The notes beneath the pieces are model-generated. The model saw nothing but the letters and a program-made list of their open reading frames with translations, searched no databases and was not told where the DNA came from. A program made the translations under genes and the position numbers. From NCBI RefSeq assembly GCF_035511235.1, contig NZ_DATKFQ010000010.1:44074-108073 (forward strand): a DNA stretch of 64,000 nucleotides, written 5' to 3'. The stretch is from Dokdonella sp. (GTDB lineage: Bacteria; Pseudomonadota; Gammaproteobacteria; Xanthomonadales; Rhodanobacteraceae). Positions 18,949-38,816 of the stretch are shown here, in pieces (position 1 is the first letter of the stretch; the number at the start of each line of letters is the position of its first letter).

Positions 18949-18987
18949 TTCGGGATTTTTTCCCGAACATCGCAGGAAAAAATCCTG
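18949..18987. promoter_or_regulatory. Paired palindromes (candidate upstream activator sequences) of mxaF
   Basis: CGGGA-TTTTT-TCCCG (18951-18965) and CAGGA-AAAAA-TCCTG (18973-18987), centres 22 bp apart. Confidence 0.7.
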
Positions 18988-19218
18988 ACGCGTCGCGCAT
19001 AAAACCGCAGTTTCTGCCGGGAAAAACGTGAGTTCTCGGATCGACGGCGATCGCGTATGCGGCATCGGCGTGTAGCGAAACTGGCGCAGTCTTGTGCCAC
19101 GGAAGTGGCAACGCGCATCGGTGCGTTCGAGACGATGGCGCAGTCGCGCGATCGCCTGCTCGCGGCGACGATCGCGAAACGGCATCACGTGCGGCCATTT
19201 GCGCGAACGGCCTCGCGG

Positions 19219-19235
19219 TTGGCCCGCTTCCTGCT
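19219..19235 (+). promoter_or_regulatory. Sigma-54 (-24/-12) promoter of the mxa operon
   Basis: TTGGCCCGCTTCCTGCT: GG-N10-GC spacing matches TGGCACG-N4-TTGCW. About 108 bp upstream of the ATG. Confidence 0.65.
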
Positions 19236-19342
19236 CCTCTCATAGCCCGCACCAACCCGTCGAACAACCACGATGCGTGGTCGCAAGCCTCAGCAGAGCG
19301 CTTGTGCAACACGGCATCTCGATCAACACAACCGGAGGGGTC

Positions 19343-21202
19343 ATGAGGAAAGTCCTGTTATCGGCAACGGCATTGGCGACGGCGCTCGCATCGACGCTGG
19401 CGCTGGCCAACGACAAGCTCGTCCAGCTCTCGCAGAGCGAAGAGAACTGGGTGATGACCGGCAAGAACTACAACGCCAACAACTTCAGCAAGGCGACCCA
19501 GATCAACGACAAGAACGTCAAGCAGCTGCGTCCGGCATGGACGTTCTCGACCGGCGTGCTCAACGGCCACGAGGGCACGCCGCTGGTCGTCAACGGCACG
19601 ATGTACATCCACTCGCCGTTCCCGAACCTCACCTTCGCGCTCGATCTTGCGAACCCCACGCGCATCAAGTGGATGGACAAGCCCAAGCAGAACGCGGCCG
19701 CGCGCGCGGTGGCCTGCTGCGACGTCGTCAACCGCGGCCTGGCCTACTGGCCCGGTGACGGCAAGGTGCCGGCGCTGATCTTCAAGACCCAGCTCGACGG
19801 CCACATCGTCGCGCTCAACGCCGAGACCGGCGAGACCTACTGGAAGCTCGAGAACTCCGACATCCGCGTCGGCTCGACGCTGACGATCGCGCCGTACGTG
19901 GTCAAGGACTACGTGATCGTCGGCTCCTCCGGCGCCGAGCTCGGCGTGCGCGGCTATCTGACCGCCTACGACGTCAAGACCGGCGAGCAGAAGTGGCGCG
20001 CCTATGCGACCGGCCCCGACGAGGAGCTGCGCCTGGCCAAGGACTTCAACAGCGCCAATCCGCACTACGGCCAGTTCGGCCTCGGTCTCAAGACCTGGGA
20101 AGGCGAGGCCTGGAAGATCGGCGGCGGCACCAACTGGGGCTGGTACGCGTTCGATCCGGCGACCGACCTGATCTACTTCGGCAGCGGCAACCCGGCGCCG
20201 TGGAACGAGACCATGCGTCCGGGCGACAACAAGTGGACGATGACGATCTGGGGCCGCAACGTCGATACCGGCATGGCCAAGTTCGGCTACCAGAAGACGC
20301 CGCATGACGAATGGGACTACGCCGGCGTCAACGTCATGATGCTGTCCGAGCAGACCGACAAGGCCGGCAAGAAGCGCAAGCTGCTGACCCATCCGGACCG
20401 CAACGGCATCATCTACACGCTGGACCGCGAGAACGGCGATCTGATCTCGGCCGACAAGCTCGACGATACGGTCAACTGGGTCAAGAGCGTGGACCTCAAG
20501 ACCGGCCTGCCGCTGCGCGATCCGGAGTTCGCCACGCGCATGGACCATAACGGCCGCGACATCTGCCCGTCGGCGATGGGCTATCACAACCAGGGCCACG
20601 ACTCCTACAACCCCGACAAGCAGCTGTTCTTCCTCGGCATCAACCACATCTGCATGGACTGGGAGCCGTTCATGCTGCCGTACCGCGCAGGTCAGTTCTT
20701 CGTCGGCGCCACGCTCAACATGTACCCGGGCCCGAAGGGCGATCGCCAGAACTACGAGGGCCTGGGCCAGATCAAGGCCTACAACTCGATCACCGGCGAG
20801 TACAAGTGGGACAAGATGGAGCGCTTCGCGGTCTGGGGCGGCACGCTCGCGACTGCCGGCAACCTGGTGTTCTACGGCACGCTCGACGGCTTCATCAAGG
20901 CGCGCAACGCCGACACCGGCGACCTGCTGTGGAAGTTCAAGCTGCCGTCCGGCGTGATCGGCCATCCGATGACCTATACGCACAAGGGCACGCAGTACGT
21001 CGCGATCTTCTACGGCGTCGGCGGCTGGCCCGGCATCGGCCTGGTGCAGGATCTGGAGGATCCGACGGCCGGTCTCGGCGCGGTCGGCGCGTTCAAGAAG
21101 CTGGCCAACTACACGCAGATGGGCGGCGGCATCATGGTGTTCTCGCTCGACGGCAAGGGTCCGTACGACGACATCAATCTCGGCGAATACGCCAGCAACT
21201 GA
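19343..21202 (+). CDS. mxaF: Ca2+-dependent PQQ methanol dehydrogenase, large subunit
   Basis: [28 protein letters not shown], and DEWDYAGVN (Ala at the position of the lanthanide-binding Asp). GGAGG RBS. Confidence 0.97.
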
Positions 21203-21212
21203 GGCCTCGCGG

Positions 21213-21239
21213 CACGGGGCGTCGCAGTGACGCCCCGTG
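21213..21239 (+). terminator. Stem-loop after mxaF (attenuator or mRNA-stabilising hairpin)
   Basis: CACGGGGCGTC-GCAGT-GACGCCCCGTG perfect 11-bp stem, weak U tract. Confidence 0.6.
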
Positions 21240-21273
21240 TCTTCCGATCCACGCGACGAAACGGGATTCGTGC

Positions 21274-22116
21274 ATGTTCCTACGTGTGTTCCATCGCTTT
21301 TTCCGCGCCGGCGTCTGCGCCGGCGGTCTCGCCCTGGCCTCACTGCCGGCGGCAGCCGCGCCCGAGTCCCTGCGCATCTGCGCCTCGGAGATCGAGGCGC
21401 CCTACTCGTACAAGGACGGCAGCGGCTTCGAGAACCGCATCGCCGAGATCGTCGCCCGCCAGATGGGACGCAAGGCGGACTTCGTCTGGTCGCCGCGCGC
21501 GGCGATCTACCTGGTCCGCGACGGCCTCGACAAGAACGAATGCGACGTCGTCATGGGCCTGGACAGCGGCGACGAGCGCGTGCTGACCACGCGCCCGTAC
21601 TACCGCGCCGGCTACGTGTTCGTGACGCGCGCCGACCGCGACCTCTCGATCGACACCTGGAACGATCCGCGGCTCAAGCAGATGAACTCGATCGCGATGG
21701 GCTATGCCTCGTCGGCCGAGGCGATGATCAAGAAGATCGGCAAGTACGAGGACAACGCCAACTACGTCTACTCGCTGACCGACTTCAAGTCGCGGCGCAA
21801 CCAGTACATCCGCGTCGATCCGGCGCGCATGGTCAACGAGGTCGCGCAGGGCAAGGCCGACCTCGCGATCGCGTTCGCGCCGGAGGTCGCCCGCTACGTC
21901 AAGTCGTCCACGGTGCCGCTGAAGATGCAGCGCGTGCCGGCCGACGACACCGGCAGCGGCGAGCCGATCCCGTTCCAGTTCGACCAGTCGATGGCGGTGC
22001 GCAAGAACGACCGCGCCCTGCTCGACGCGCTCAACGCCGCCCTCGCGGCCGCGGCACCGCAAATCCAGAAAGTGCTCAGTGACGAAGGCATACCGGTCGT
22101 TCCGGCTGCTTCCTGA
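21274..22116 (+). CDS. mxaJ: MxaJ periplasmic binding-protein-like MDH accessory
   Basis: LRICASEIEAPYS...GFENRIA, PYYRAGYVFV. Position directly after mxaF. Confidence 0.93.
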   Translation: MFLRVFHRFFRAGVCAGGLALASLPAAAAPESLRICASEIEAPYSYKDGSGFENRIAEIVARQMGRKADFVWSPRAAIYLVRDGLDKNECDVVMGLDSGDERVLTTRPYYRAGYVFVTRADRDLSIDTWNDPRLKQMNSIAMGYASSAEAMIKKIGKYEDNANYVYSLTDFKSRRNQYIRVDPARMVNEVAQGKADLAIAFAPEVARYVKSSTVPLKMQRVPADDTGSGEPIPFQFDQSMAVRKNDRALLDALNAALAAAAPQIQKVLSDEGIPVVPAAS

Positions 22117-22163
22117 GATCGCTTGTGACCCCAGGCCACCCGGACCACCCAGATAGGTAGACG

Positions 22164-22724
22164 ATGAAGAAAACCCCGCGAATCGCCGGCGTGCTGAGCC
22201 TCGCCGTCCTGTCGTGTGCCGCAGCGGCGGCACAGGCGCAGATCACCTTCCGCAACGTGACCGATGGATCGGCGCTGGACCTGTCCAATGCACGCGAGGA
22301 AGATCGCGACACGCCCGGCGTCAAGCAGTTCCTCGAGACCGGAAGGAACCCTTACAACAGCAAGCCGGCCTGCCTCAAGAAGGGCGAGAACCTGATGCTG
22401 ACGGCCTGTTCGGCCTGCCACGGCCACTATGCCGAGGGCAAGATCGGCCCGTCGCTGACCGACGACTACTGGACCTACCCGGAAGGCAAGACCGACGAGG
22501 GCCTGTTCTCGATCATCTTCGGCGGCGCGCGCGCGCAGATGGGACCGCAGTACCTGTCGCTGACGCTCGACGAGATGCTGCAGGTGATGGCCTGGGTGCG
22601 CCACATCTACCACGGCCCGGCCGAGGCGGCCGACTGGATGAGCGAGGAGGAACGCAAGGCCTATGTACCCTGGTCTCCGGACCAGAAGCTCGAGGTTCCG
22701 GACGGCGCGGTCTGCGCGCCTTGA
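22164..22724 (+). CDS. mxaG: Cytochrome cL
   Basis: CSACHG heme motif, GKIGPSLTDDYWTYP, GGARAQMGPQ. Confidence 0.95.
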   Translation: MKKTPRIAGVLSLAVLSCAAAAAQAQITFRNVTDGSALDLSNAREEDRDTPGVKQFLETGRNPYNSKPACLKKGENLMLTACSACHGHYAEGKIGPSLTDDYWTYPEGKTDEGLFSIIFGGARAQMGPQYLSLTLDEMLQVMAWVRHIYHGPAEAADWMSEEERKAYVPWSPDQKLEVPDGAVCAP

Positions 22725-22732
22725 CGGAGCCT

Positions 22733-22757
22733 GCCGTGCCGAGCCGATCGGCACGGC
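22733..22757 (+). other. Intergenic hairpin after mxaG
   Basis: GCCGTGCCGA-GCCGA-TCGGCACGGC, 10-bp stem. Confidence 0.5.
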
Positions 22758-22828
22758 GCTGCGACGGACGCCGCCGGACGCGCCGGCGGACCCATGATGG
22801 TTCCACTGCACCACACCGAGGAGCGAAG

Positions 22829-23140
22829 ATGAAATCGAACACCGCACGCATGCGCATTCCGCTGTCCCTGCTCGCGATCGGCGTCGCCGCCCTGTGCGGC
22901 GGCCAGGCACTGGCCTACGACGGCACCAAGTGCAAGGAAGCCGGCAACTGCTGGGAGCCCAAGCCGGGCTATCCGGAAAAAGTCGCCGGCTCCAAGTACG
23001 ACCCGAAGCACAATCCGAACGAGCTCAACAAGCAGTCGGTGTCGCTCGCCGCGATGGAGGCGCGCAACGCCCAGCGCGTCGCGAACTTCAAGAAGACCGG
23101 CAAGTTCGAGTACGACGTCGCCAAGCTGCCCAAGCCGTGA
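22829..23140 (+). CDS. mxaI: Methanol dehydrogenase small subunit
   Basis: YDGTKCKEAGNCWEPKPGYPEKVAGSKYDPKH signature. GAGGAG RBS. Confidence 0.97.
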   Translation: MKSNTARMRIPLSLLAIGVAALCGGQALAYDGTKCKEAGNCWEPKPGYPEKVAGSKYDPKHNPNELNKQSVSLAAMEARNAQRVANFKKTGKFEYDVAKLPKP

Positions 23141-23145
23141 CCCGC

Positions 23146-23182
23146 GCGGCCGCCCGACCGCTGTGCCGGCACGGGCGGCCGC
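23146..23182 (+). other. Intergenic hairpin after mxaI
   Basis: GCGGCCGCCCG...CGGGCGGCCGC, 11-bp stem. Confidence 0.5.
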
Positions 23183-23261
23183 CGCGACGCGCCACCGCCG
23201 CCCGCGCAGCCGCGCGGGCGCGCGCTGCCGGGACGACCTCTGCTGCGACGACGACTGCTTC

Positions 23262-24305
23262 GTGAATATCCCATCGGTTTCCGCGTCACCCGCGCCCCCG
23301 GACCTGGACGCCTGGCGCGAACGCGCGCTCGGCTTCGAACGCGAGATCGCACGCGCCGTCGTCGGCCAGGCGCCGGCGCTGCGCCTGCTGACGATCGCGG
23401 TGTTCGCGCGCGGCCATGTGCTGCTCGAGGGCGACGTCGGCGTCGGCAAGACCACGCTGCTGCAGGCCGCCGCGCGCGCGATCGGCGGCGACTACGGCCG
23501 CATCGAGGGCACGATCGACCTGATGCCGGCCGATCTGGTCTATCACACCTCGCTCGACGAGCACGGCCGTCCGCGCGTGGAGCCGGGGCCGGTGCTGCGC
23601 CACGGCGAGCGCCTGGCGGTGTTCTTCTTCAACGAGATCAACCGCGCGCGGCCGCAGGTGCATTCGCTGCTGCTGCGCCTGATGGCCGAGCGCAGCCTGT
23701 CGGCGTTCAATCGCGAATACGCCTTCCCGTATCTGCAGGTATTCGCCGACCGCAACCAGGTCGAGCGCGAGGAAACCTTCGAACTGCCGGCGGCGGCACG
23801 CGACCGCTTCTTCATGGAGATCGCGATCGCCACGCCTGCCGATCCGGACGTGCGCCGCGACCTGATCTTCGATCCGCGCTACCACGACGTCGCGGCGCTG
23901 GTCGAGGCGGTGACGCCGGGCGTGCTCGATCCGGCCCGGCTCGACGCGGTGGCGCGGGCGATCCAGCAGCACGTTCGCGCCAGCGACCGCCTGCAGCGCT
24001 ACGTCGAGGCCCTGTGGACGGCGGTGCGCGATCCGGCGCGCGCCGGCATCGGGATCGCCGACGTCGACACCGAGCGCCTGATCGCCGGCGGCGCCAGTCC
24101 GCGCGGCATGGCCTATCTGGTGCGCGCCGCGCGCGTGCGCGCCTGGCTCGAAGGCCGCGACATGCTGGTGCCCGAGGACCTGCGCGCGGTGTTCTTCGAG
24201 ACCGTCGCGCATCGCATCTTCCTCGCGCCGGTCTACGAAGCGCGCCGCGCGGCGATCCTGCCGGCGCTGTGCCGCGCCGTCTTCGAGACGGTGCCGGTGC
24301 CCTGA
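23262..24305 (+). CDS. mxaR: MoxR-family AAA+ ATPase (start uncertain)
   Basis: EGDVGVGKT, FFNEINRARP, ADRNQVEREETFELP. GTG start chosen at 23262. Confidence 0.92.
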   Translation: MNIPSVSASPAPPDLDAWRERALGFEREIARAVVGQAPALRLLTIAVFARGHVLLEGDVGVGKTTLLQAAARAIGGDYGRIEGTIDLMPADLVYHTSLDEHGRPRVEPGPVLRHGERLAVFFFNEINRARPQVHSLLLRLMAERSLSAFNREYAFPYLQVFADRNQVEREETFELPAAARDRFFMEIAIATPADPDVRRDLIFDPRYHDVAALVEAVTPGVLDPARLDAVARAIQQHVRASDRLQRYVEALWTAVRDPARAGIGIADVDTERLIAGGASPRGMAYLVRAARVRAWLEGRDMLVPEDLRAVFFETVAHRIFLAPVYEARRAAILPALCRAVFETVPVP

Positions 24306-24312
24306 ACGCCGC

Positions 24313-25191
24313 GTGGAATCCGCCGTGAGCGCCGCTGCCCGCACCGCCGACCCGGCGACCGATCAGACGGCGCTGGCCTATGCACTGCGCTGGCGCGTGC
24401 GCAGCCTGCGGCCGGGCGCGCATCGCGGCGCGGATACCGGACCGACCGGCGCGTTCCGCCGGCTCGTGCCGTTCGAGCGCAGTCCCGACGCGCGCCGTCT
24501 CGACCTGCGCGCCAGCCTGCGCGATCCGTTCGGCGGCCTCTACGTGCGCCAGTTCGAGCAGCGCAGCGCCGCCTCGGTGCAGGTCTTGATCGACACATCG
24601 GCGTCGACCGCCTTCGACGCCGGCCACGGCAGCGCGCTGTCGCGCGCGATCGCGCTGACGCGGCAGATCGCCGCTGCGGTCCGCACCTATGGCGATGCGC
24701 TGGGCCTGGTCGCCGGTGCCGCGAGCGCGCGCGCCGAGCGGCCGCCGCTGCGCGAGAGCGCCGATGCCGTGATCGAGGCGCTGCAGCGGCTCGCCCCGCA
24801 AGGCCGCGGCATCGACGCGCTGCTCGATGCGGCGCGTACGCTCGGCACGCGCCGCCGCCTGGTCTTCGTGCTGTCCGATTTCGCGTTCGCGCCGGCGACG
24901 CTCGCCACGCTGCTCGAGGCACTGGCCGCGCACGACGTGGTGCCGGTCCGGTTCGGCCACGAGGCGTGGACGCAGCTGCCGCGCTACGGCCTGGCCGAAC
25001 TCGCCGACCTGGAGACGGGCCGGCGCCGCCTGGTCTGGATCCGGCCCGGCCTGCGCGCGCGCTGGCACGCGGCCGAGGCCGCACACCGCGAGGCAGTCGC
25101 CGCGCTGTGCCGGCGCCATGGGCAGCCGCTGCTCGACCTGCCCAGCGCGCTCGACGTCGAGGCGGTCAGCCGGCATCTGCTGGAGCGATGA
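24313..25191 (+). CDS. mxaS: MxaS (DUF58/vWA-like)
   Basis: PGAHRG, DARRLDLRASLRDP, IDTSAST. Follows mxaR. Confidence 0.88.
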   Translation: MESAVSAAARTADPATDQTALAYALRWRVRSLRPGAHRGADTGPTGAFRRLVPFERSPDARRLDLRASLRDPFGGLYVRQFEQRSAASVQVLIDTSASTAFDAGHGSALSRAIALTRQIAAAVRTYGDALGLVAGAASARAERPPLRESADAVIEALQRLAPQGRGIDALLDAARTLGTRRRLVFVLSDFAFAPATLATLLEALAAHDVVPVRFGHEAWTQLPRYGLAELADLETGRRRLVWIRPGLRARWHAAEAAHREAVAALCRRHGQPLLDLPSALDVEAVSRHLLER

Positions 25192-26123
25192 GCACGATGC
25201 GCACCCTGCTCCTGCCGAACCGCCATGCCCGGCCCGCCCTGCTCTGCCTGCTGATCGCATCCGGTGCGGCCGCCGACGACGGCCCGATCCGCGAAGTGCA
25301 GCCGCTCGACGCGCGCACGGTCGGCTACACGCTCGGCGATCGCGTGCCGCGCAGCGTGCTGCTGCGCGTCGATCGCGACTGGCAGCTGCAGACCGCCGCG
25401 CTGCCGGCGCCGGGGCCGCAGACCTACTGGCTCGAGCTGCGCGCGGTCGACGTGCACGAGCGGCTGGAGCGCGACGCGCGGGTCTACCGCATCGATCTCG
25501 ACTACCAGACCTTCTATGCGCCGATCCAGGCGCTCGAACGCAGCCTGCCGGCGTTCGAGGTGACGGTCGGCCGCGGCGAGCAGACCGCGAGCGCGCGCGT
25601 GCCGCCGTTCCGCTTCACGATGTCGCCGCTGCGCGAGGTCAAGCTCAGCGCCGGCGGCGACCAGCGCGCGCCGTCCATGCTGCGCCCCGACATCGAGCCC
25701 GGCCCGCGCCCGCTGCGGCCGGCGTTCGCCGCGCTGGGCGGCGCGGTCGTCCTGGCCGCCGCATTCGCGCTGGCGCTGGCCTGGCACTACGCGCGCTGGC
25801 CATTCGGACATCGGCCGGCGCGGCCGTTCGCGCAGGCCGCGCGGCGTCTGCGCCGTCCGGCGGACTATCGCGACGCCCTGCTGACCGTGCACCGCGCGTT
25901 CGACGCGACCGCCGGCCGGCGCGTGCTGGCCGAGGACGCCGCCGCGCTGATCGAGGCGCAACCGCGCCTCGCACCGCTGGCGGCCGACATCGCGCGCTTC
26001 TTCGACGCCTCGCGCCGCGCGTTCTTCGGCAGCGGCGAACGCGAGGCGGCCGCGCTGCTGCCGACCGCGGAGCTCGCCGCGCTGGCGCGGCGGCTGGCCG
26101 CGGCCGAACGGAGACCGGCATGA
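25188..26123 (+). CDS. mxaA: MxaA Ca2+-insertion accessory protein
   Basis: GYTLGD, LDYQTFYAP, VHRAFDATAG. ATGA coupling and operon position. Confidence 0.85.
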   Translation: MSTMRTLLLPNRHARPALLCLLIASGAAADDGPIREVQPLDARTVGYTLGDRVPRSVLLRVDRDWQLQTAALPAPGPQTYWLELRAVDVHERLERDARVYRIDLDYQTFYAPIQALERSLPAFEVTVGRGEQTASARVPPFRFTMSPLREVKLSAGGDQRAPSMLRPDIEPGPRPLRPAFAALGGAVVLAAAFALALAWHYARWPFGHRPARPFAQAARRLRRPADYRDALLTVHRAFDATAGRRVLAEDAAALIEAQPRLAPLAADIARFFDASRRAFFGSGEREAAALLPTAELAALARRLAAAERRPA

Positions 26124-27139
26124 ACCCTGCCGGCGACTGGCTGCTGCTGCGGCCGCTGGCGCTGGCGCTGCTGCCGCTGGCGCTGCTGCCGTGGCTGAAC
26201 TCGGGACGCCGCATCTCGGCCTGGCCGTGGTCCGGCACGCTGCCGGTCGATCCGGCCTCGACCGGGCTCGATCGCGCTCTGCGCCTGCTCGCCTCGGCGG
26301 CGATCGCGGCCTTCGTGCTGGCGCTGGCCGGACCGGGCCTGCGCGGCCAGCAGGTCGAGCGCGTCAGCACCGGCGCGCGCGTGGCGATGGTGATCGACCG
26401 CAGCGGCAGCATGAACAGCACGTTCGCCGGCCGCGCACCGGACGGCGGCGAGGAATCCAAGGCCGCCGCCGCGCGCCGTCTGCTCAAGGCGTTCGTGACG
26501 CGCCGCGAACACGACCGCGTCGGCATCGTCGCGTTCTCGACCTCGCCGATGTTCGTGCTGCCGATGACCGATCGCCACGCCGCGGTCCATGCCGCGATCG
26601 ACGCGATCGACCAGCCCGGACTGGCCTATACCGACGTCGCACGCGGCCTGGCGATGGCGTTCGACCTGTTCGACGCGCGCGACCCGATCGCCTCGCAGGC
26701 GATCGTGCTGGTCTCCGACGGCGCGGCCGTGATCGACCGGCGCGTACAGGAGAAGCTGCGCGCGGCGTTCGCGGCGCGGCCGCTGCACCTGTACTGGCTG
26801 TTCCTGCGTACCGAGCGCAGTCCCGGCCTGTTCGAGGCGCCGGCCGATCCGCGCGATGACACGCCGCAGCGCATGCCCGAGCGCCATCTGCACCGGTTCT
26901 TCGAATCGCTCGGCGTGCCGTACCGCGCCTTCGAGGCCGACAGCGCGGCCGAGCTGGCCGCCGCGATCGCGGCGATCGACCAGGCCGAACGCGGCGAGGT
27001 GCGCTGGCTGGAGGCCTTGCCGCAGCGCGACCTGTCGGCGTTCGCGTTCGCGCTGGCCGCACTGGCCTGCCTGCTGCTGGCGATCGCCAAGCGCTTGGAA
27101 GTGCGGATCGGTCCCCCGCTGCCGGTGCTGCGGCCATGA
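26120..27139 (+). CDS. mxaC: MxaC vWA-domain protein
   Basis: DRSGSM MIDAS motif, VLVSDG, LYWLFLR, MPERHLHRFF. Confidence 0.88.
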   Translation: MNPAGDWLLLRPLALALLPLALLPWLNSGRRISAWPWSGTLPVDPASTGLDRALRLLASAAIAAFVLALAGPGLRGQQVERVSTGARVAMVIDRSGSMNSTFAGRAPDGGEESKAAAARRLLKAFVTRREHDRVGIVAFSTSPMFVLPMTDRHAAVHAAIDAIDQPGLAYTDVARGLAMAFDLFDARDPIASQAIVLVSDGAAVIDRRVQEKLRAAFAARPLHLYWLFLRTERSPGLFEAPADPRDDTPQRMPERHLHRFFESLGVPYRAFEADSAAELAAAIAAIDQAERGEVRWLEALPQRDLSAFAFALAALACLLLAIAKRLEVRIGPPLPVLRP

Positions 27140-27714
27140 CGCGCGCACTGCCGACCCGCCTGCGTGCCTGGACGCCGGCCCTGCTCTGGACCGGACTGGC
27201 GCTCGGCCTCGCTGCGGTCGCGGCCAGCGCCGCGCTGCTGCTGCTGCGTCTGCACGACAACCGCCGCATCGCCGCGCTGGCCGAGGGCCGCGACGTCGAG
27301 ATCGGCGAGGACGCCTCGCCCGCGCTGACGTTCGCGCGCGCGCACTACCTGCTCGTGCGCGACCGGCTCGACGACGCGCGCGCACCGACCGAACGCCTCG
27401 CGCACGGCAGCGCCCGGCGGTTCGCGTTCGCGGCGCTCTACGACAAGGGCAATGCGCATCTGCGCCGCGCGCTCGAGATCGTCGACGCGCACCGCTACGA
27501 CGACACGATCGCCCAGGTCAATCTCGCCAAGGAGCACTATCTGCGCGCGCTGCGCCTCGATCCCGGCGACTGGGATGCCAAGTACAACCTCGACGTGGCG
27601 ATGCGGCTGGTCCGCGACTTCCCGGACGGCGAAGCGGAAGGCGACGAGGAACCGCCCGAGCAGCCCGACCGCCTCTGGACCGACCTGCCCGGCCTGCCGC
27701 GAGGCGGACCGTGA
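27136..27714 (+). CDS. mxaK: MxaK TPR-like protein
   Basis: LYDKGNAHLR, ALRLDPGDWDAKYNLD, WTDLPGLPRGGP end. Confidence 0.88.
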   Translation: MTRALPTRLRAWTPALLWTGLALGLAAVAASAALLLLRLHDNRRIAALAEGRDVEIGEDASPALTFARAHYLLVRDRLDDARAPTERLAHGSARRFAFAALYDKGNAHLRRALEIVDAHRYDDTIAQVNLAKEHYLRALRLDPGDWDAKYNLDVAMRLVRDFPDGEAEGDEEPPEQPDRLWTDLPGLPRGGP

Positions 27715-28691
27715 GCGCGCGTGTCGACGGCCGGTTCTGGCTGCTGCTCGGCGCCGCGGTGCTCGGCATTCTCGGCGCCGCCGATCCGCAGGTCGACTAT
27801 CGGCGCCAGCGCCTCGACGCGCTGTTCGTCGTCGACATCACCGGCAGCATGAACGTGCGCGACTACCGCGCCGATGGAGCGCCGCAAAGCCGGCTCGACC
27901 ACGTCAAGACCGCGCTGGCGGCGCTGATCGCCGACATGCCGTGCGGCTCGCGCGCCGGCGTCGGCGTGTTCGCCGAGCGCCGCCCGTTCCTGCTGATCGC
28001 ACCGGTCGAGACCTGCGCGAACTACGCGCCGCTGGCCGGCATGCTGCAACAGCTCGACTGGCGCATGGCCTGGGAAGGCGACAGCTACGTGGCCAGCGGG
28101 CTGTACCAGTCGATCGCGCTCGCCGCCGAGTTCGACACCGACTTGGTGTTCCTCAGCGACGGCCAGGAGGCGCCGCCGCTGCACTGGAGCGGCGCCGCGC
28201 CGTTCGAGGGCGAGCCCGGCGCCGTGCATGGCCTGATCGTCGGCGTCGGCGACGTGATCCCCTCGCCGATTCCGAAATTCGACCGTGACGGCCGCGAGAG
28301 CGGCTTTCTCGGACCCGGCGACGTGGTGCAGGAAAACCGCAGCGGCACGCCGCCGCCGGACGCCGAGCGGCGCGAGGGCTGGCATCCGCGCAACGCGCCA
28401 TGGGGCGCGGCCGCGGCCACCGGCGAGGAGCACCTGTCGGCCGTGCACGAGACGCATCTGCGCGCGCTGGCCGCGGCGACCGGCCTGGGCTACGTACGGC
28501 TGACGCCGGGCCTGCGCCTCGACCGCGCATTGGCGAGCCATGCCGCGCCGCGCGCGGCCGAGGCCCGGCTGCCGCTGGCGCCGTGGTTCGCGGCGACCGC
28601 ACTGATCCTGTTGACGGCAGTCTGGCGGCCCGAACACGCCGGCCGCCGCGTCCTGCCATCGTTTTCGTTTCGACCGAGGAGACCTGCATGA
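27711..28691 (+). CDS. mxaL: MxaL vWA-domain protein
   Basis: VDITGSMNVRD, DWRMAWEGDS, FLSDGQEAPP. Confidence 0.88.
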   Translation: MSARVDGRFWLLLGAAVLGILGAADPQVDYRRQRLDALFVVDITGSMNVRDYRADGAPQSRLDHVKTALAALIADMPCGSRAGVGVFAERRPFLLIAPVETCANYAPLAGMLQQLDWRMAWEGDSYVASGLYQSIALAAEFDTDLVFLSDGQEAPPLHWSGAAPFEGEPGAVHGLIVGVGDVIPSPIPKFDRDGRESGFLGPGDVVQENRSGTPPPDAERREGWHPRNAPWGAAAATGEEHLSAVHETHLRALAAATGLGYVRLTPGLRLDRALASHAAPRAAEARLPLAPWFAATALILLTAVWRPEHAGRRVLPSFSFRPRRPA

Positions 28692-29227
28692 ACCCCCGCT
28701 TCCCCCGTTTCGCGCTGGCCGCCGCATTCGCGGCGGCGCTCACGACCGCACCGGCATGGGCGCACGGCCCGACGCCGCACAAGGCCGAGGAGACCGTGAC
28801 GATCGCGCGGCCGCCGGCCGAGGTCTGGAAGGCCGTCGCCGACTTCGACGCGCTGTCCAGGTGGAATCCCGCGGTCAGCAGCAGCGTCGCCAGCAACGGC
28901 AATACGCCCGGCTCCGAGCGCACCGTCGTGCTCGCCGGCGGCGGCGAACTGATCGACAGCCTCGACACCTACGACGCGGCCGCGATGAGCTACGGCTATC
29001 GCCTCTATCAGGAGAACGTCGAAGCGTTCCCGGTCAGCTACTACACCGCCGAGCTCAGCGTGAAGCCGGCCGACGGCGGCAGCGAGGTCGTCTGGTCGGC
29101 GCGCTACTACCGCGGCGACACGCACAACGACCCGCCGGAAAACCTCAACGACGCAGCCGCGCAGAAGGCGATCGGCGACCTGTTCCGCGCCGGGCTGGAC
29201 AATCTCAAGCGGACGCTCGAGAAATAG
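28688..29227 (+). CDS. mxaD: MxaD (SRPBCC/START-fold periplasmic protein)
   Basis: Signal peptide, AHGPTPHK, VWKAVADF, RYYRGDTHNDPP. Confidence 0.9.
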   Translation: MNPRFPRFALAAAFAAALTTAPAWAHGPTPHKAEETVTIARPPAEVWKAVADFDALSRWNPAVSSSVASNGNTPGSERTVVLAGGGELIDSLDTYDAAAMSYGYRLYQENVEAFPVSYYTAELSVKPADGGSEVVWSARYYRGDTHNDPPENLNDAAAQKAIGDLFRAGLDNLKRTLEK

Positions 29228-30485: not shown

Positions 30486-30530
30486 CGGCGTACTTCAGTG
30501 AACCGTCAAACCATGAGCGACGTCCGACTC

Positions 30531-30561: not shown

Positions 30562-30585
30562 AACCATACCTTCTCTTTTTTCCAA

Positions 30586-30616
30586 GTAAGAAAACGCCCC
30601 CACGCGGCGACTCAGG
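30586..30616 (+). promoter_or_regulatory. ECF-type promoter driving the amidohydrolase operon
   Basis: GTAAG-N17-CGACTCAGG on the + strand, with the same conserved blocks and spacing as the - strand copy. Confidence 0.75.
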
Positions 30617-30648
30617 AGACCAACCCCACCGACAGGAAGGCAGGACCG

Positions 30649-32097: not shown

Positions 32098-32099
32098 AC

Positions 32100-32642: not shown

Positions 32643-32923
32643 GCACGCGGTCCACGGACGAAGTCGTTCGATCGCAGCGAAGGATGCGTCGCGCGCAACG
32701 ATGGATCGTGCTGGCCGGTACGGCATGCGTGCTGTCGTGGATCGCGCTGATCACCGGTCTGCTGATGCAGGTGGACACCGGAATCCGGATCGCCCTGGCG
32801 ACCGCGGCGGCCGTGACCACAGAAGGTACGTTCTGGCTGGCAGCACTGCTGCTCGGCGTGAGCGTTTATCAGGCGCGACAGCGACTCTGGGCAACGCTGA
32901 AACGCAGGTTCGCCGCAAAATGA
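32639..32923 (+). CDS. Small 2-TM membrane protein
   Basis: ATGA coupling, two hydrophobic segments, TEGTFWLAALLLG. Confidence 0.6.
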   Translation: MSTRSTDEVVRSQRRMRRAQRWIVLAGTACVLSWIALITGLLMQVDTGIRIALATAAAVTTEGTFWLAALLLGVSVYQARQRLWATLKRRFAAK

Positions 32924-33066
32924 GCGGGTAGCGGCGGAAGACGACCGAAGCCGGGCACCGGCGACGGACCGTGCAAACCGTGCAGCGAGAGGCGAGCCTC
33001 GATGTCCCCCTGCGCTGCCATCGGGTGAGCGGCGGCCGCCGTCCCGGCACGGCGCCTGCGCCGGGT

Positions 33067-34050
33067 CTATTTGCCGATCACCACGCCCCACGGCAGTTCG
33101 CCGACCGCGATGTCCTTGATCTTCTTGCGCGTGGCCGTGTCGATCACGCTGACGCTGTTGGAGCGGCCGTTGGCGACGTAGAGCTTGCGGCCGTCCGGCG
33201 TCAGCGCCGGGTTCCACGGCCGCTCGCCGACCTTGATCTCGGCGACCGCCTCGCCCTTGGCGACGTCGATCACCGAGACGCTGCCGGCGCCGCCGTTGGA
33301 CGCATAGACGAACGCGCCGTCGGGACTGACGGTCAGGCCGGCGGTGCGCAGCCCGGCCGCGATGCTGCCGGTCTTGCTGCGCGAGGCCAGATCGATCACG
33401 TCGACGACGTTGGCGGTCTCCTGCGCGACGTAGACCCGCGTGGTCTTGGGCAGGAACGCCATGCCGCGCGGGTGGCCGCTGGTCTTGATCACGGCGACCG
33501 AGCGGGCCGCGGCGACGTCGATGACGTCCAGATCGCTGCTGGCCTCGTTGCTGGTCAGCAGCCACTTGCCGTCCGGCGAGAACACGCAGTGCTCGGGATT
33601 GCGCCCCTGCGTGGCGACGTCGGCGCGGATCTTCAGCGTTGCCGCGTCGACCAGCAGGATGTGCTGCGAACCTTCGACGCAGACCGCGAGCGAGGCGCCG
33701 TCCGGCGAGACCGTGACGCCTTCGGCGTCCTCCTCGATCGGCACGCGCGTGCGCACGCTGTCCGAGGCGATGTCGAGCGCGACCAGCGCATTGTGCGCGG
33801 CGTCGATCACGAACAGCGTCTTGCCGCCCGGATCGAGCGCGACCTGCTGCAGGCGCTTGCCGAGCTCGCCCTGCGCGCTCAGCGTGCGTACGACCTCGTC
33901 GCTGCCGGTGTCGATGACCGAGATCGTGCCGCTGCGCTGGTTCGGCACGTAGGCCATCGGCGCCGCGCCGGCGCTCGTGGCGCCGAACGCCGCGGCGAGC
34001 GCGAGCGCGGCGGTCAGCAGACGGCCCGGGCGCAGAAACGATCGAAACAT
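33067..34050 (-). CDS. YVTN-type beta-propeller protein of the kind associated with PQQ dehydrogenase clusters
   Basis: Signal peptide, AYVPNQRSGTISVIDT, repeated SPDG..YV.N...SVSVID, VGELPWGV. GAGGAG RBS. Confidence 0.88.
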   Translation of the reverse strand: MFRSFLRPGRLLTAALALAAAFGATSAGAAPMAYVPNQRSGTISVIDTGSDEVVRTLSAQGELGKRLQQVALDPGGKTLFVIDAAHNALVALDIASDSVRTRVPIEEDAEGVTVSPDGASLAVCVEGSQHILLVDAATLKIRADVATQGRNPEHCVFSPDGKWLLTSNEASSDLDVIDVAAARSVAVIKTSGHPRGMAFLPKTTRVYVAQETANVVDVIDLASRSKTGSIAAGLRTAGLTVSPDGAFVYASNGGAGSVSVIDVAKGEAVAEIKVGERPWNPALTPDGRKLYVANGRSNSVSVIDTATRKKIKDIAVGELPWGVVIGK

Positions 34051-34174
34051 GAGCAATCTCCTCGAGACGGTTCGGGTGCGGCGCGGCATCGGCCGGTGCC
34101 GGCACGCCGCGCGCGAAGAGCGGAGCGACCGCTGCCGGACCGGCACGGCCGCTCCATTCACTGCGGGGCGCCGC

Positions 34175-34732
34175 TCAGTGCTTGCCGACGTCGAGCGGTG
34201 CGTCGGTCGCGTGTTTGGACGCGTCGCCGTACTTCTTCGCCTCGCTGCCGCGCCAGTTGGAGCGGACGAACGTGATGATCTTCCACAGATCGTCGTCGCT
34301 CTTGACGATCGTGCCGAACGGCATCATCGGTCCGACCACGTTCTCCTTGCCGATCCGATGATAGCCGTCCTTCTGCAGCGCGTCGCTGCCTTCGGAGATC
34401 AGGCGGAACAGCGTGTCGTCATCGCCGCCGTAGACCCAGGTCTCGTTGGTCAGCGGCGGACACATGCCGCCGCCGCCGGAGCCGCCGTGGCAGCCGTTGC
34501 AGCTGGCACGCAGGAACAGCTTGCGTCCTTCCTCGACGATGGCCTTGTCCGAATCCTGGTACGGATTCTTGAGCTGTCCCTTCGGCGTGGACTTGATGCG
34601 CTCGAGCGGCGGCATCGTCCCTGCCGCGGGCGCAGCGGCCGGATCGGCGGCCGACGACGTCGCCGGCAGACCGAGCCACACGGCCGCCGCCAGCACCAAC
34701 GAAACACTTGCTGCAACTGCTTTGTTCAACAC
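34175..34732 (-). CDS. xoxG: Monoheme cytochrome c, XoxG-like
   Basis: CNGCHG, GGGMCPPLTN.TWVYGGDDDTLFRL. GTG start with GAGGAG RBS. Located downstream of xoxF/xoxJ. Confidence 0.8.
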   Translation of the reverse strand: MLNKAVAASVSLVLAAAVWLGLPATSSAADPAAAPAAGTMPPLERIKSTPKGQLKNPYQDSDKAIVEEGRKLFLRASCNGCHGGSGGGGMCPPLTNETWVYGGDDDTLFRLISEGSDALQKDGYHRIGKENVVGPMMPFGTIVKSDDDLWKIITFVRSNWRGSEAKKYGDASKHATDAPLDVGKH

Positions 34733-34793
34733 GTACGACTCCTCACTTTCGATTGCCTGGGGTAACACCTGGGAAGGACGCGGTCGCCGCCAC

Positions 34794-36461
34794 TCAGCCA
34801 CGCTGCGCCGGACCGCCTGAACCGCCACCGGATGCGCGCGCGTGCTCGAGCACCTCGACCACGGCGCGGTTGTCGCGTTCGCTGGCGATGCCGAGGGCGG
34901 TGGTGCCGTCCTCGCTGGCCGCGCCGGCGTCGGCACCGTGCTGCAGCAGCAGCCGCACCGAATCGACGCGGTTGGCCGCGGCCGCGATGATCAGCGGCGT
35001 GATGCCGGCCTTGTTCTGCGCGTTGACGTCGGCGCCGCGCTCGACGAGCTTGGCCGCCGCATCGTCCCAGCCGCCGACCAGGGCCAGCATCAACGGCGTG
35101 TAGCCGCCGGCGCCGACGCTGAGATTGGCGTTGGCGCCGGCCGCGAGCAGGGCGGCGACCGCGCCGGAGCGGCCGTGCTGGGCCGCGATGCACAGCGGCG
35201 TCAGCCCCTGCTGGTTGGCGGCCTCGAGCTTGGCGCCCTTCTCGAGCAGCATGCCGACGATCTCCGGACTGTCGCGCCAGGCCGCGTACATCAGCGGCGT
35301 CCAGCCGTCGCGGTCGGCCAGGTTGACGTCGGCGCCGTGCTGGATCAGAAAGCGCGTCAGGTCGTTGTAGCGCGTCTTGACCGCGGTCAGCAGCGGCGTG
35401 TAGCCCTCGTCGTCGCGGGTGTCGACGTCGGCGCCATGCTCGAGCAGGTAACGGACGCGCACGACGTCGCCGGCGGTCGCGGCGTTGGACAGTTCGTCGT
35501 TCGGATCGGCGCCTTCGCTGAGCCAGCGCTTCAACTGGTCGAGGCTGGCGCCGGTGCCGCCGGACGGTGTCGCCATCGAGGCCACTTCGGTCTTCGGCTG
35601 CGCGGCGGCCTGCTGCGCGACCAGCTCGCCGCTGATCACGCATTCGGCGCACTGCACCAGCGGCACGCCGTACTCGTCGAGGATCGCGCGGATCTGGTCC
35701 TTGCGGCTGACCAGCACCTCGTCGAGCTTGTCGCGCAGGCCGCGGTCGCCGCGGCGCACGCCGAGCGCCATCTCGAACTGCAGCGGCGGATCGGTCGCCA
35801 TCAGATTGACCGGCTGCAGCGTGATCGGCGCCTGCTTGATCGTCTTGTACCAGCCGGCGAACGGGCCCCAGATCGCGACCAGATCGAGTTCGCCGTCGAG
35901 CATCCGCTGCACCTGATAGGTCGGCTGGTGCTCGGGCACGGTGGCGCCGTCGTAGCTGATGAAGTGCGTGACGGTGTTGTCCTTGATGCCGTGGTCGGCC
36001 AGCGCCTCGCGCACCGAGGACATCTGGTAGACGCCGATCTTGAGCTTCTTGAGGCGCGGATCGTCGAAGTTCTCGAAGCGCAGCTTGCGGTCCGTGCGCG
36101 AGGCCAGCACGAAGGTGCTGCGGTAGACCGGCCGCGTCGTCAGCACGCGCTCCAGGCCGACCGGCAGGTCGAACATCACGTCGCACATGTTGGCGTCGAG
36201 CGTGCCGCGCATCAGGCCGCGCTCGGTCGACGGACGGAAGTCGTACTGCACGCCGGTGCCGAGCGCCTCGCCGAGCACCTGCGCGATCTTGTTCTGGAAG
36301 CCTTCGCCCTTGTCGTTGGACAACGGCATGTTGCCCGGATCGGCGCAGACGCGCAGCGCGCGAATCTGCGGCGCCTGAGCCTGTGCCGCGCCGGGCGCGA
36401 GCGCGCTCGCAGCGGCGGCAACGGCGAGAGCGCTCGCCAGCGGGATGTGGATCCGGACCAT
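34794..36461 (-). CDS. xoxJ: XoxJ/MxaJ-like periplasmic binding protein fused to about 7 ankyrin repeats
   Basis: LRVCADPGNMPLSNDKGEGFQNKIA N-domain, then repeated G.TPL..A......V..LL..GAD.N units. Confidence 0.85.
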   Translation of the reverse strand: MVRIHIPLASALAVAAAASALAPGAAQAQAPQIRALRVCADPGNMPLSNDKGEGFQNKIAQVLGEALGTGVQYDFRPSTERGLMRGTLDANMCDVMFDLPVGLERVLTTRPVYRSTFVLASRTDRKLRFENFDDPRLKKLKIGVYQMSSVREALADHGIKDNTVTHFISYDGATVPEHQPTYQVQRMLDGELDLVAIWGPFAGWYKTIKQAPITLQPVNLMATDPPLQFEMALGVRRGDRGLRDKLDEVLVSRKDQIRAILDEYGVPLVQCAECVISGELVAQQAAAQPKTEVASMATPSGGTGASLDQLKRWLSEGADPNDELSNAATAGDVVRVRYLLEHGADVDTRDDEGYTPLLTAVKTRYNDLTRFLIQHGADVNLADRDGWTPLMYAAWRDSPEIVGMLLEKGAKLEAANQQGLTPLCIAAQHGRSGAVAALLAAGANANLSVGAGGYTPLMLALVGGWDDAAAKLVERGADVNAQNKAGITPLIIAAAANRVDSVRLLLQHGADAGAASEDGTTALGIASERDNRAVVEVLEHARASGGGSGGPAQRG

Positions 36462-36658
36462 CGGGTGACTCCTCATTGCTTTGTGCGGTACGGGCGCCTG
36501 CCCGCCGGCCGCACGCGTCTGCATCGAACGGCGCAAGCCACGCCTGCGCCCCTTGCTCCGGCGGACTGCGACTTGGGCCGCCACCGGACCGAACGCCGCG
36601 GTCATGTCCGAGGCGACCTTGCGCCTGCCGGATCTGCGGAACAACACGACCTTGGTGG

Positions 36659-36696
36659 TAAAAAAACGAATGCCCGGCGCCTCGTCGGCGCCGGGC
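36659..36696 (-). terminator. Intrinsic terminator directly after xoxF
   Basis: GCCCGGCGCC-N5-GGCGCCGGGC stem followed on the - strand by ATTCGTTTTTTT. Confidence 0.8.
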
Positions 36697-36729
36697 CTTT
36701 CGATCGATCGACTCAACCCGCCAGGTGCA

Positions 36730-38589
36730 TCAGTCGCCCACGCGGAACGTGTAGAGCGTGCCGCCCTGCGGAATCTTGTCGAGGTTGGCCGCCTTGGTCA
36801 TCGCGGTGGCGCCGATCGCGCCGAACTTGTCCTCCAGATCCAGGCCCGCGGTGACCGGCAGGCCGATCCAGCCGCCGATGCCGCTCCACACCGACACGTA
36901 CTGCTTGCCGTTGACCTTGTAGGTGATCGGGTTGCCGATCACGCCGGAGCCGAGCTTGCGCGACCACAGCACCTTGCCGGTCTTGCGGTCGACCGCGCGG
37001 AAGTCGCCGCCGAGGCTGCCGTAGAACGCCAGGCCGCCGTCGGTGATCAGCGCGCCGCCCCAGTTCGGATACGGATCGGGGATCTCCCACACCGTCTCGC
37101 CGGTCAGCACGTTGAACTTCTTGAACTTGCCGGTCACGCCCGGCTTCTCCGGGTACATGTAGACGTTGGCGAACACGTAGACCGTGCCCTGCTGGGTGTG
37201 CGCACGCTCCTGAGGCTCGAGCTCCATGCACCAGTTGTTGGTCGGGCAGTAGGCGACGCCTTCCTCGTTCGGATCGAGCGCGCACGGCTGCTGGTCCTTG
37301 CCGCCCATCGCCGACGGGCAGACCTGCGTGTTCTGCTCGACCGAGAACGGCGAGTGCTCCTTGACCTTGACCGGCTTGCCGGTCTTCATGTCGACCTTCT
37401 CGGCCCAGTTGGCGGTGACGTACTTGTGCGCCTTGAGCAGGGTGCCGTCGACGCGGTCGAGCACGTAGGCGAAGCCGTTGCGGTCGAAGTGCACGAGGAC
37501 CTTGCGCTTCTTGCCGTCGATCGTCCAGTCGGCCAGCATGTTCTCGTTGATGCCGTCGTAGTCCCACTGGTCGAACGGCGTCATCTGGTAGGCCCATACC
37601 GCCTCGCCGGTATCGATCTTGCGCGCGAAGATCGTCATCGACCAGTGGTTGTCCTGGCTGCCGTCGTTGCACTCCTCGTGGGTCTTGTGCTTGCAGCGGA
37701 ACGAAGGACTCCACAGGCCCGGGTTGCCGGTCGCGTGGTAGACCAGCTTGAGCTCCGGGTCATAGCTGTAGAAGCCCCAGCTGGCGCCGCCGCCGCGCTT
37801 CCACTCGTCGCCCGGATAGCCGGTGACGCCCAGATCCTTGCCGCCCTGGCCGTAATGCGGATTGGCCTTGTTGGTGTTCTTGGTCACGCACACGTCCTTG
37901 TCGGGACCGGTGGCGTGGCATTCCCAGAGCTTCTTGCCGTCGGCCAGGTTGTAGGCCGTGAAGCGGCCGCGCGCGGCGAACTCGTCACCGCCGAAGCCGA
38001 TCAGCACCTTGTTCTCGGCGATCAGCGGCGCCGGCGTGATCGTCTCGCCGTTCTCGGGGAACGCGTGCTTGACGACCCACAGCTCCTTGCCGGTCTTGGC
38101 GTCGAGCGCGATCACGAAGCCGTCGAGCGTGCCGAACACGACCTTTCCGTCGGCGTAGGACAGGCCGCGGTTGACCGTGTCGCAGCAGGCGCGCGGCACC
38201 GCCGACTCGTCGCGGTCCTCCTGCTTGACGTACTTCCAGATCGCCTTGGGATTGTCCGGGTCGCTCAAGTCCAGCGCCTGCACGATGTTCGGCCAGCCGC
38301 TGATCAGGTACATCATCGCCTTGCCGCCCTCGGTCACGACGACCGGCTGGCCCTCGTGGCCGCGCAGCGTGCCGCTGGACTGCGACCAGATCATCTGCAG
38401 CTTGCCGACGTTGTCGGTCGAGATGTCCTTGAGCGGGCTGTGCCGCGTCATCGACAGATCGCGGCCGGGCGCCGGCCACTGGTTCGGATCCTTCTGCCGC
38501 TCGATCGTCTCCGGGTTCGCCATCGCGCCCGCACTGACCGCCCCCATGAGCACCGCGGTACACACCATCGCTACTCGTCGAAATTTCAT
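36730..38589 (-). CDS. xoxF: Lanthanide-dependent PQQ methanol dehydrogenase, XoxF1-like
   Basis: [24 protein letters not shown], and WDYDGINE (second Asp = Ln3+ ligand). Clade assignment is by recollection of sequence style only. Confidence 0.92.
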
Positions 38590-38706
38590 TCGTTGCTCTC
38601 CTCATTCGCAGACGGAAGACCCCTGGCAACGGCGATGCCGAAGGCACCTACCCACGGGCCGCGCGCTACCAACCAGCACCTCGTCGATCGTTGCGCGACG
38701 CTTGTT

Positions 38707-38724
38707 AAGCAGCGGATGTGCCAA
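38707..38724 (-). promoter_or_regulatory. Sigma-54 (-24/-12) promoter of xoxF
   Basis: TTGGCACATCCGCTGCTT on the - strand (GG-N10-GC), about 118 bp upstream of the ATG. Confidence 0.75.
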
Positions 38725-38775
38725 GCGCGAAGACGGACATTGCGGCCTGACGATTCAAGGAGTTGCGGACGTGCC

Positions 38776-38816
38776 CGGGAGAATTTCCTGTTGCGTTGCA
38801 ATAGGAATTGCTCCCG
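38776..38816. promoter_or_regulatory. Paired palindromes (candidate upstream activator sequences) of xoxF/azurin
   Basis: CGGGA-GAATT-TCCTG (38776-38790) and TAGGA-ATTGC-TCCCG (38802-38816), centres 26 bp apart. Confidence 0.7.

Follow-up and report, generated by a model that had tools for sequence, protein, structure and literature searches.

Paired palindromes upstream of the sigma-54-type mxaF and xoxF promoters of Dokdonella as probable operators of a LuxR/NarL-type regulator

The Dokdonella sp. genome considered here (4.29 Mb, 70.4 per cent GC; labelled G000) carries two methanol dehydrogenase (MDH) genes in a stretch of 64 000 nucleotides, referred to below as the window (C10:44074-108073): mxaF, the first gene of an operon with the order mxaFJGIRS..., and xoxF. 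On the basis of signature residues, MxaF belongs to the calcium type (DYA) and XoxF to the lanthanide type (DYD). Upstream of each gene lie a GG-N10-GC element of the -24/-12 type and two copies of a palindrome. A preliminary description of the window had listed these two elements and four palindromes, and all of them are confirmed in the sequence; the protein that the palindromes serve is the subject of this work. The coordinates are collected in table 1. Genes beyond the ready-made annotation were called with a filter on GC content at third codon positions (GC3).

Table 1. Genes and upstream elements of the MDH region (positions in the window), with the regulator and kinase genes located on contig C17.
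Feature	Position	Strand	Remarks
Secreted protein, three PepSY domains	10745-12499
OmpR-type regulator	12499-13173
Histidine kinase	about 13170-14462
PilR-type sigma-54 activator	16903..18315	+	REC, AAA+ with GSFTGA, HTH_8; NtrC-class
Distal mxaF palindrome, CGGGATTTTTTCCCG	18951-18965	.	centre about -288 from predicted start; top matrix match
Proximal mxaF palindrome, CAGGAAAAAATCCTG	18973-18987	.	centre about -266 from predicted start
Two TGGCGCAGTC boxes	19082-19091, 19136-19145	+	plus inverted repeat TGCCAC-N4-GTGGCA; region 19082..19145
mxaF -24/-12 element, TGGCCCGCTTCCTGCT	19220..19235	+	GG 19221-22, GC 19233-34; predicted start near 19246
mxaF, Ca-dependent MDH large subunit	19343..21202	+	Pfam PQQ, TIGR03075, DYA signature
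mxa operon after mxaF, mxaD-like gene included	21237..29227	+	mxaJ backed by tblastn matches
mxaJ	21237-22082	+
mxaG, cytochrome c	22164-22724	+
mxaI	22829-23140	+
mxaR (MoxR)	about 23163-24305	+
mxaS (DUF58)	24313-25191	+	accessory genes between mxaS and mxaD-like gene
mxaD-like	28400-29227	+
Genes 3' of xoxF	34175..36716	-	xoxJ-ankyrin fusion and xoxG
xoxG, cytochrome c	34175-34936	-
xoxJ-like protein fused to ankyrin repeats	34794-36716	-	Pfam Ank families in C-terminal half, multiple repeats
xoxF, lanthanide-type MDH	36730..38589	-	DYD signature
xoxF -24/-12 element, TGGCACATCCGCTGCT	38708..38723	-	predicted start near 38697
Proximal xoxF palindrome, CAGGAAATTCTCCCG	38790-38776	-	centre about -86
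Distal xoxF palindrome, CGGGAGCAATTCCTA	38816-38802	-	centre about -112
LuxR/NarL-type response regulator	C17:65425-66078		outside the window
NarX-like kinase	C17:66149 to about 67530		beside the regulator

In both -24/-12 elements the GG and GC doublets are 10 nt apart within a TGGCAC-N5-TTGCW-like sequence, and the start codon follows the GC by 109 nt (mxaF, ATG at 19343) or 120 nt (xoxF, ATG at 38589). Within the genus, MxaF and XoxF are found in five genomes only: the host, G001 (a Dokdonella metagenome-assembled genome, MAG), G014, G002 and G020, the complete genome of Dokdonella sp. MW10, apparently a cultured strain. When the upstream regions of these genomes are aligned, the mxaF block CTGGCCCGCTTCCTGCTCTTC is invariant in all five and the xoxF block TTGGCACA[T/A]CC[G/A]CTGCTTA is likewise kept, while the flanks have diverged. 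Because of this contrast between blocks and flanks, the assignment of conserved sigma-54-type core promoters to both MDH genes is well supported by the comparison. No sigma-70 consensus promoter is found in the upstream regions of mxaF or xoxF. The genome has an rpoN open reading frame with a perfect RpoN box (C28) and eight genes for enhancer-binding proteins (EBPs), seven of them with a GAFTGA-type motif.

The leaders contain further conserved blocks, GCGCTTGTGCA[A/G]CACGGCA (19298-19316) before mxaF and GCGCAACGATCG plus GCATCGCCGTTGCC.GGGGTC (within 38590-38690) before xoxF. A known RNA element or a structured leader at xoxF was rejected, given the lack of any Rfam match and a fold z-score of 0.72, not unusually stable. 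Between the palindromes and the promoter of mxaF, 80-140 bp 5' of the -24 box, are the two TGGCGCAGTC boxes and the inverted repeat TGCCAC-N4-GTGGCA, and a TGGCGCAGTC box also lies 5' of the sigma-54 site of fdh, the gene for glutathione-dependent formaldehyde dehydrogenase. Eleven of the 15 genomic copies of this box are intragenic coding words, and it is retained as no more than a lead, a possible EBP site. The fdh gene carries the sigma-54-type element TGGCACGGCCAGTGCT, identical in the host (C17:63348) and in MW10 (884757); in the host no palindrome is found upstream of it. A strong site of the same type, TGGCACGTTCCCTGCT, precedes an aldehyde dehydrogenase gene (C20:111189-111400 in the host; 2506728-2506900 in MW10). 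Its upstream region, which adjoins the divergent gene of the AcoR-type EBP C20b, contains the perfect inverted repeat TGTCGCA-N3-TGCGACA, probably C20b's own site since it is conserved between the two genomes.

All four MDH palindromes fit the symmetric form YRGGA-N5-TCCYR; the consensus is CRGGAA-N3-TTCCYG, often followed by ..CGCATCGCA. At mxaF the centres are 22 bp apart (263 and 241 bp 5' of the GG), and at xoxF 26 bp apart, with 53 bp between the proximal edge and the -24 box. The symmetric form has 50 matches in the whole genome, but only two pairs of matches lie 60 bp or less apart, and these are the mxaF and xoxF promoters. The top seven genome-wide matches of a position weight matrix (PWM) are the MDH sites and the regulator, TonB receptor and porin sites described below, the same sites on which the matrix was trained, so that their ranking is partly circular. 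All five genomes have the palindromes of xoxF at about -86 and -112, and the distal one of mxaF is kept at -288/-289 in both Dokdonella subgroups. The second mxaF palindrome is at -266 in G000, G001 and G014, and at about -98 in G002 and MW10. A terminator function was rejected, the matches of the scan being artefacts of T/A runs and 5-bp stems.

Further palindromes with A/T-rich spacers occur at four more places in the host genome. The palindrome is present twice 5' of the gene for a LuxR/NarL-type response regulator on C17, again between the adjacent NarX-like kinase gene and a TonB-dependent receptor gene (C17:67557), and about 263 bp 5' of the sigma-54-type promoter of a porin gene, which adjoins an aldehyde dehydrogenase gene (C20:109417). 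Another copy (C10:6832-6846, 37 kb before the window start) is separated by about 52 bp from the RND efflux operon that follows it, which codes for an outer-membrane factor, a membrane fusion protein (MFP) and a CusA-like pump. This last copy was not part of the PWM training, and it sits in a 38-bp block kept in G001 and G014. The operon parallels the lanthanum-induced RND system of Methylobacillus flagellatus. Upstream of the regulator gene, an invariant 30-bp block containing the palindrome is followed by sigma-70-like hexamers. No -24/-12 element is found at the palindrome-bearing regulator gene, TonB receptor gene or RND operon, nor at a PedE-like alcohol dehydrogenase (ADH) gene of MW10, where the palindrome lies about 70 bp before the gene and leaves too little space for one.

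The regulator consists of a REC domain and a LuxR/GerE helix-turn-helix domain and has NCBIfam matches of the NarL/UhpA/GacA type; the kinase beside it is of the HisKA_3 type, with UhpB/NarQ-type matches. True orthologues of the regulator (82-97% identity) are confined to the five genomes that bear MDH genes. A single island contains the regulator gene and mxaF in G002 and MW10, 2.8 kb apart; in MW10 its order is xoxF operon, mxa operon, divergent fdh (preceded by a sigma-54 site of its own), VOC, regulator, kinase and TonB receptors, with a palindrome at each intergenic node. The recognition helix of the regulator is kept across all the clades compared.

In more distant genomes, at 59-65% regulator identity, the synteny xoxF...fdh-regulator-kinase-palindrome-TonB is still present, and the palindrome at the kinase/TonB node is kept down to about 60% identity. 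At this distant node a conserved TAACGT box follows the palindrome centre by about 31 bp, which is the class II position of a sigma-70-type promoter; in relatives the palindrome stands at about -42, ahead of a -10-like box. On plasmid p3 of Azospirillum brasilense Sp7, a gene for a pyrroloquinoline quinone (PQQ)-dependent ADH is divergent from a kinase-regulator pair (the exaA-eraSR arrangement), and the exaA-eraS intergenic region holds CGGGATTTTTTCCCG, a 15-mer identical to the distal mxaF palindrome. The same site is present in A. lipoferum 4B. EraR of A. brasilense and the Dokdonella regulator are 42% identical over their full length, and the kinases 31%. Control of exaA by EraS/EraR (ExaD/ExaE-type) in strain Sp7 is reportedly the subject of a 2017 study by Singh et al. 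in J Bacteriol. A guessed -24/-12 element of A. brasilense, TGGAAC-N5-AAGCG, is not conserved in A. lipoferum and was discarded. In Sphaerotilus, a palindrome pair with a spacing of 22 bp and GTCGCATCG in between matches the layout at Dokdonella mxaF, and is followed at class II distance by a TAGACT box before the PQQ-ADH gene; in Ideonella a kinase-regulator pair is divergent from a TonB receptor gene, and GGGAAGTTTTCCC precedes a TTAGCG box.

Of nine further genomes of the class with a true MxaF, six have palindromes 5' of mxaF and one has a sigma-54-like element. The latter (L183 in G389, from another family) has a near-identical -24/-12 element, TGGCCCGCTACTTGCT, about 281 bp 5' of mxaF, and no palindrome within 600 bp upstream. 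In L184, a regulator 39% identical to that of Dokdonella is divergent from mxaF, and two palindromes lie between the two genes; the upstream region of this mxaF showed no sigma-54-like element. Weak regulator matches (34-41%) in Methylobacterium, Bradyrhizobium and a Methylococcaceae MAG are not MDH-linked within 10 kb and were left aside as uninformative.

Several distant xoxF islands encode an EBP orthologous (66-67% identity) to an AcoR-type protein of the host, C38. Two clades, composed of other Rhodanobacteraceae and uncultured gammaproteobacteria, have both a conserved sigma-54 xoxF promoter and a C38-type EBP in the island: clade A (L079, L081, L082, L085) and clade B (L077, L080, L088). 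Their xoxF promoters are made up of GTGTTCC-N6-GGAACAC about 110 bp upstream, GTTGCGNCGCAAC, an IHF-like ATCAATCGATTG, TTGGCAC-N5-CTGCA and a leader starting GCGCATCGCAG; they have no palindrome. The distal xoxF palindrome of Dokdonella sits where these clades carry GTGTTCC-N6-GGAACAC. The recognition helix of the C38-type EBP is nearly identical between the two clades and Dokdonella, and yet their xoxF uses a different repeat, which suggests that a different protein uses the palindrome. Those islands encode one further regulator only, that of the LuxR type, which is thus the candidate for binding it.

On the basis of these sequence comparisons, we estimate at roughly 65 per cent the probability that the palindromes are operators of a LuxR/NarL-type regulator of the MxaB/PedR2/EraR (ExaE) family, in combination with sigma-54-type MDH promoters. 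The C17 regulator, encoded beside its kinase, is most likely the palindrome binder. Membership of this family is indicated by the adjacent kinase, the homology to EraR, the MDH linkage and the same operator at a characterized locus and at the regulator's own promoter; the homology was measured against EraR (42%) and against the regulator at the MxaB position in L184 (39%). As regards the preliminary description, the sigma-54-type promoters, the retention of both element types in all five MDH-bearing genomes and the differing palindrome geometry (-266/-288 against -86/-112) are borne out, and one dimeric factor very probably serves both MDH promoters, as it proposed. It was also right that the window encodes no MxaB/MxaY-type regulator. 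Homologues are nevertheless found on contig C17, and 2.8 kb from mxaF in MW10, and for this reason its designation of a new lanthanide-switch circuit was overstated. Its reading of the palindromes as EBP sites did not hold either, as discussed below.

The regulator would act as a dimer on each palindrome at six promoters, those of mxaF, xoxF, its own gene, the kinase/TonB node, the porin and the RND operon. Transcription by sigma-54 requires an AAA+ activator, and one such protein would open the core promoters of mxaF, xoxF, the porin gene and fdh. The best candidate for this ATPase is the AcoR-type C38 protein, whose orthologue is inside the xoxF island of related bacteria; C38, lacking its expected site, may act without a strong one, or another EBP may act, or the regulator may serve as a promoter tether. 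Lanthanide availability may be relayed by the kinase to the phosphorylation state of the regulator, and the metal itself may be handled by the TonB receptor and RND pump of the same regulon. If the regulator behaves like PedR2 and MxaB, its phosphorylated form (with a kinase that is active when lanthanides are absent) would promote mxaF and hold back xoxF, and the opposite outcomes could arise from the placement of the palindromes, at -266/-288 (or -98 in MW10) for mxaF versus -86/-112 for xoxF.

Several observations weigh against the regulator as palindrome binder at sigma-54 promoters. Three AcoR-type EBPs are limited to the same five genomes, so that co-occurrence alone cannot single out the regulator. 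That the mapped site of EraR is the palindrome is assumed. There is also a mechanistic tension, in that the regulator is not an AAA+ protein although the MDH core promoters are of the sigma-54 type. The sigma-54 match taken alone is statistically weak, as 530 sites reach the same crude score in a genome of 70% GC, and was dropped as stand-alone evidence. The presumed C38 repeat, GTGTTCC-N6-GGAACAC, has no significant match at the Dokdonella MDH promoters, its best match being the aldehyde dehydrogenase promoter, and the ATPase assignment therefore stays a candidate. The bare 13-mer RGGA-W5-TCCY also has 0-6 copies in Dokdonella genomes without the system. A negative control in which regulator-less genomes were expected to be free of the palindrome therefore failed; the copies are mostly intragenic words coding for Asp-Phe-Phe, and also hairpins. 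Specificity would accordingly have to come from intergenic context, pairing and flanks and not from the 13-mer alone.

The palindromes might instead be upstream activating sequences of an MDH-linked AcoR-type EBP such as C38, which would activate mxaF, xoxF and the porin gene and repress those sigma-70 promoters that a palindrome overlaps. They do lie 5' of three sigma-54-type promoters, at distances compatible with an EBP; the AcoR-type EBPs share the phyletic distribution of the regulator; in related islands the gene for the C38-type EBP has a palindrome about 58 bp 5' of it; and the distal xoxF palindrome occupies the position of the sister-clade repeat. However, it is precisely the sister clades with an island EBP, and a nearly identical helix, that use GTGTTCC-N6-GGAACAC and no palindrome. 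In several taxa the palindrome also takes a class II position at promoters that are not of the sigma-54 type, it occurs where only a kinase and a LuxR regulator are encoded, and it is missing from the fdh sigma-54 site of the host. We consider this explanation improbable. The preliminary description had taken the palindromes as a hallmark of EBPs. Such sites would be expected to stand before sigma-54 promoters only and to co-vary with a particular EBP; the genes without a -24/-12 element and the copies at about -42 contradict the first expectation, and the second fails with both EBPs concerned, the PilR type being core to the genus and the C38-type islands carrying the other xoxF repeat. The PilR-like activator encoded 5' of mxaF could have been co-opted for MDH control, binding the palindromes or nearby GTGTC-type boxes: its gene adjoins mxaF in G000, G001 and G014, its GSFTGA motif is intact, and GTG[T/C]CAC boxes lie 5' of both MDH promoters. 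The PilR sites of Pseudomonas aeruginosa contain (C/G)TGTC. Against this, the gene belongs to the core of the genus and of the order regardless of MDH, with 77-98% identity in nearly all genomes of the genus. G002 and MW10, with the same promoters, carry it at a great distance from mxaF (3.8 Mb in MW10), as part of a canonical pilS-pilR-pilin-pilB cluster, and pilS and pilB are retained in the host. It is probably a pilus regulator moved beside mxaF by rearrangement, a bystander, and a role in MDH control is very improbable.

Another possibility concerns the promoters themselves: the GG-N10-GC blocks might be elements of long leaders, with transcription starting at regulator-dependent sigma-70-type promoters just 3' of the palindromes. 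The other regulon members and most other MxaF organisms indeed seem to use palindrome-dependent non-sigma-54 promoters, the leaders hold further conserved blocks, and the sigma-54 match alone is not significant. The blocks nevertheless match the -24/-12 spacing and consensus exactly at two genes and in three clades, the sister clades have in addition an IHF-like site, an inverted repeat upstream and an EBP gene in the island, and the mxaF and xoxF upstream regions are devoid of a sigma-70 consensus. There are also published sigma-54 precedents for exaA (PMC6115532) and for xoxF (PMC9988556). We find this alternative rather unlikely.

If the regulator is the palindrome binder, it might have taken over the enhancer position at the Dokdonella sigma-54 promoters, giving a hybrid activation mode for both MDHs; we regard this extension as doubtful. 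In such a mode, the two operators at xoxF would have taken the place, at about -110, of an ancestral inverted repeat for an EBP, and the regulator would tether an AcoR-type ATPase devoid of a DNA site or, as has been claimed for EraR, make direct contact with sigma-54. A response regulator that is not an AAA+ protein would then give promoter specificity to the sigma-54 transcription of a calcium-type and a lanthanide-type MDH. Independently of this extension, natural variants for studying the cooperation of LuxR-type regulators with sigma-54 are available: palindromes stand in place of an EBP site, and one palindrome, at -266, has moved to -98. The proposed operator provides a concrete sequence for the MxaB/PedR2/EraR family, which runs the calcium/lanthanide switch; the same sequence is found at PQQ dehydrogenase loci of Alpha-, Beta- and Gammaproteobacteria. 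The classical mxaF operon is added to exaA and xoxF as a probable case of sigma-54 involvement.

In the host, the pil regulatory cluster is split: pilR (16903-18315) follows the gene for a secreted 496-aa protein (15306-16796) and not pilS, and pilS and pilB are on other contigs (C12:23913-25514 and C14:32432-32920). The next 630 bp or so (18316-18950) of the 1-kb pilR-mxaF spacer have no clear coding frame and no Rfam match. Just 5' of the mxa region, positions 10745-15178 code for a PepSY protein, an OmpR-type regulator, a histidine kinase and a DUF3016 protein. In M. flagellatus a PepSY protein named LanP forms a lanthanide-binding part of the lanthanome (PMC9988556).

A close parallel is the EraS/EraR system, which has, as in Dokdonella, a LuxR-type regulator and a kinase (42% and 31% identical, respectively) and the identical palindrome CGGGATTTTTTCCCG, and lies in Azospirillum beside the gene of a sigma-54-dependent PQQ alcohol dehydrogenase. 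According to PMC6115532, exaA of A. brasilense is sigma-54-dependent and requires as an interaction partner a LuxR-type regulator that shares 45% identity with PedR2; EraR-RpoN is used as a positive two-hybrid control in PMC12826043. Azospirillum has one ADH gene and one palindrome, whereas Dokdonella has two methanol dehydrogenases of opposite metal preference, with a pair of palindromes each; in contrast to Azospirillum, the regulator is unlinked from the dehydrogenases in the host, and the regulon takes in a TonB receptor, an RND system and a porin.

PedS2/PedR2 of Pseudomonas putida KT2440 also consists of a kinase and a LuxR-type regulator and exerts inverse control on calcium and lanthanide PQQ dehydrogenases, phosphorylated PedR2 activating pedE and repressing pedH (PMC6115532). 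A porin and an aldehyde dehydrogenase are found in its neighbourhood, as in Dokdonella (PMC12997753). Its targets are the ethanol dehydrogenases PedE and PedH, in place of MxaF and XoxF; the cited literature describes no operator or sigma-54 link for it. In Methylomicrobium buryatense, mxa expression goes up and xoxF expression down under MxaB, whose gene is in turn lanthanide-controlled through MxaY (PMC5018670). This gene is divergent from mxaF, a position shared by the gene of the L184 regulator, which is 39% identical to that of Dokdonella. MxaB is described as an orphan regulator (PMC5018670), whereas that of Dokdonella has an adjacent kinase. With the primary EraR paper set aside, the cited literature gives no operator motif for PedR2 or MxaB.

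The gene cast of Dokdonella is that of M. flagellatus, in which sigma-54 regulators, a TonB receptor, a CusA-like RND system and a PepSY protein respond to La3+; a sigma-54 promoter is predicted at xoxF, and EBPs are encoded beside xoxF and beside the TonB receptor (PMC9988556). No LuxR-type operator is described there (PMC9988556), and the EBP that adjoins xoxF contrasts with the syntenic EBP type of Dokdonella, C38, which is unlinked. The compact regulon of Dokdonella, with its two dehydrogenases, TonB receptor, RND pump and porin, resembles the experimentally defined Methylobacillus lanthanome, and the circuit is a variant of the MxaY/MxaB, PedS2/PedR2 and EraS/EraR circuits.

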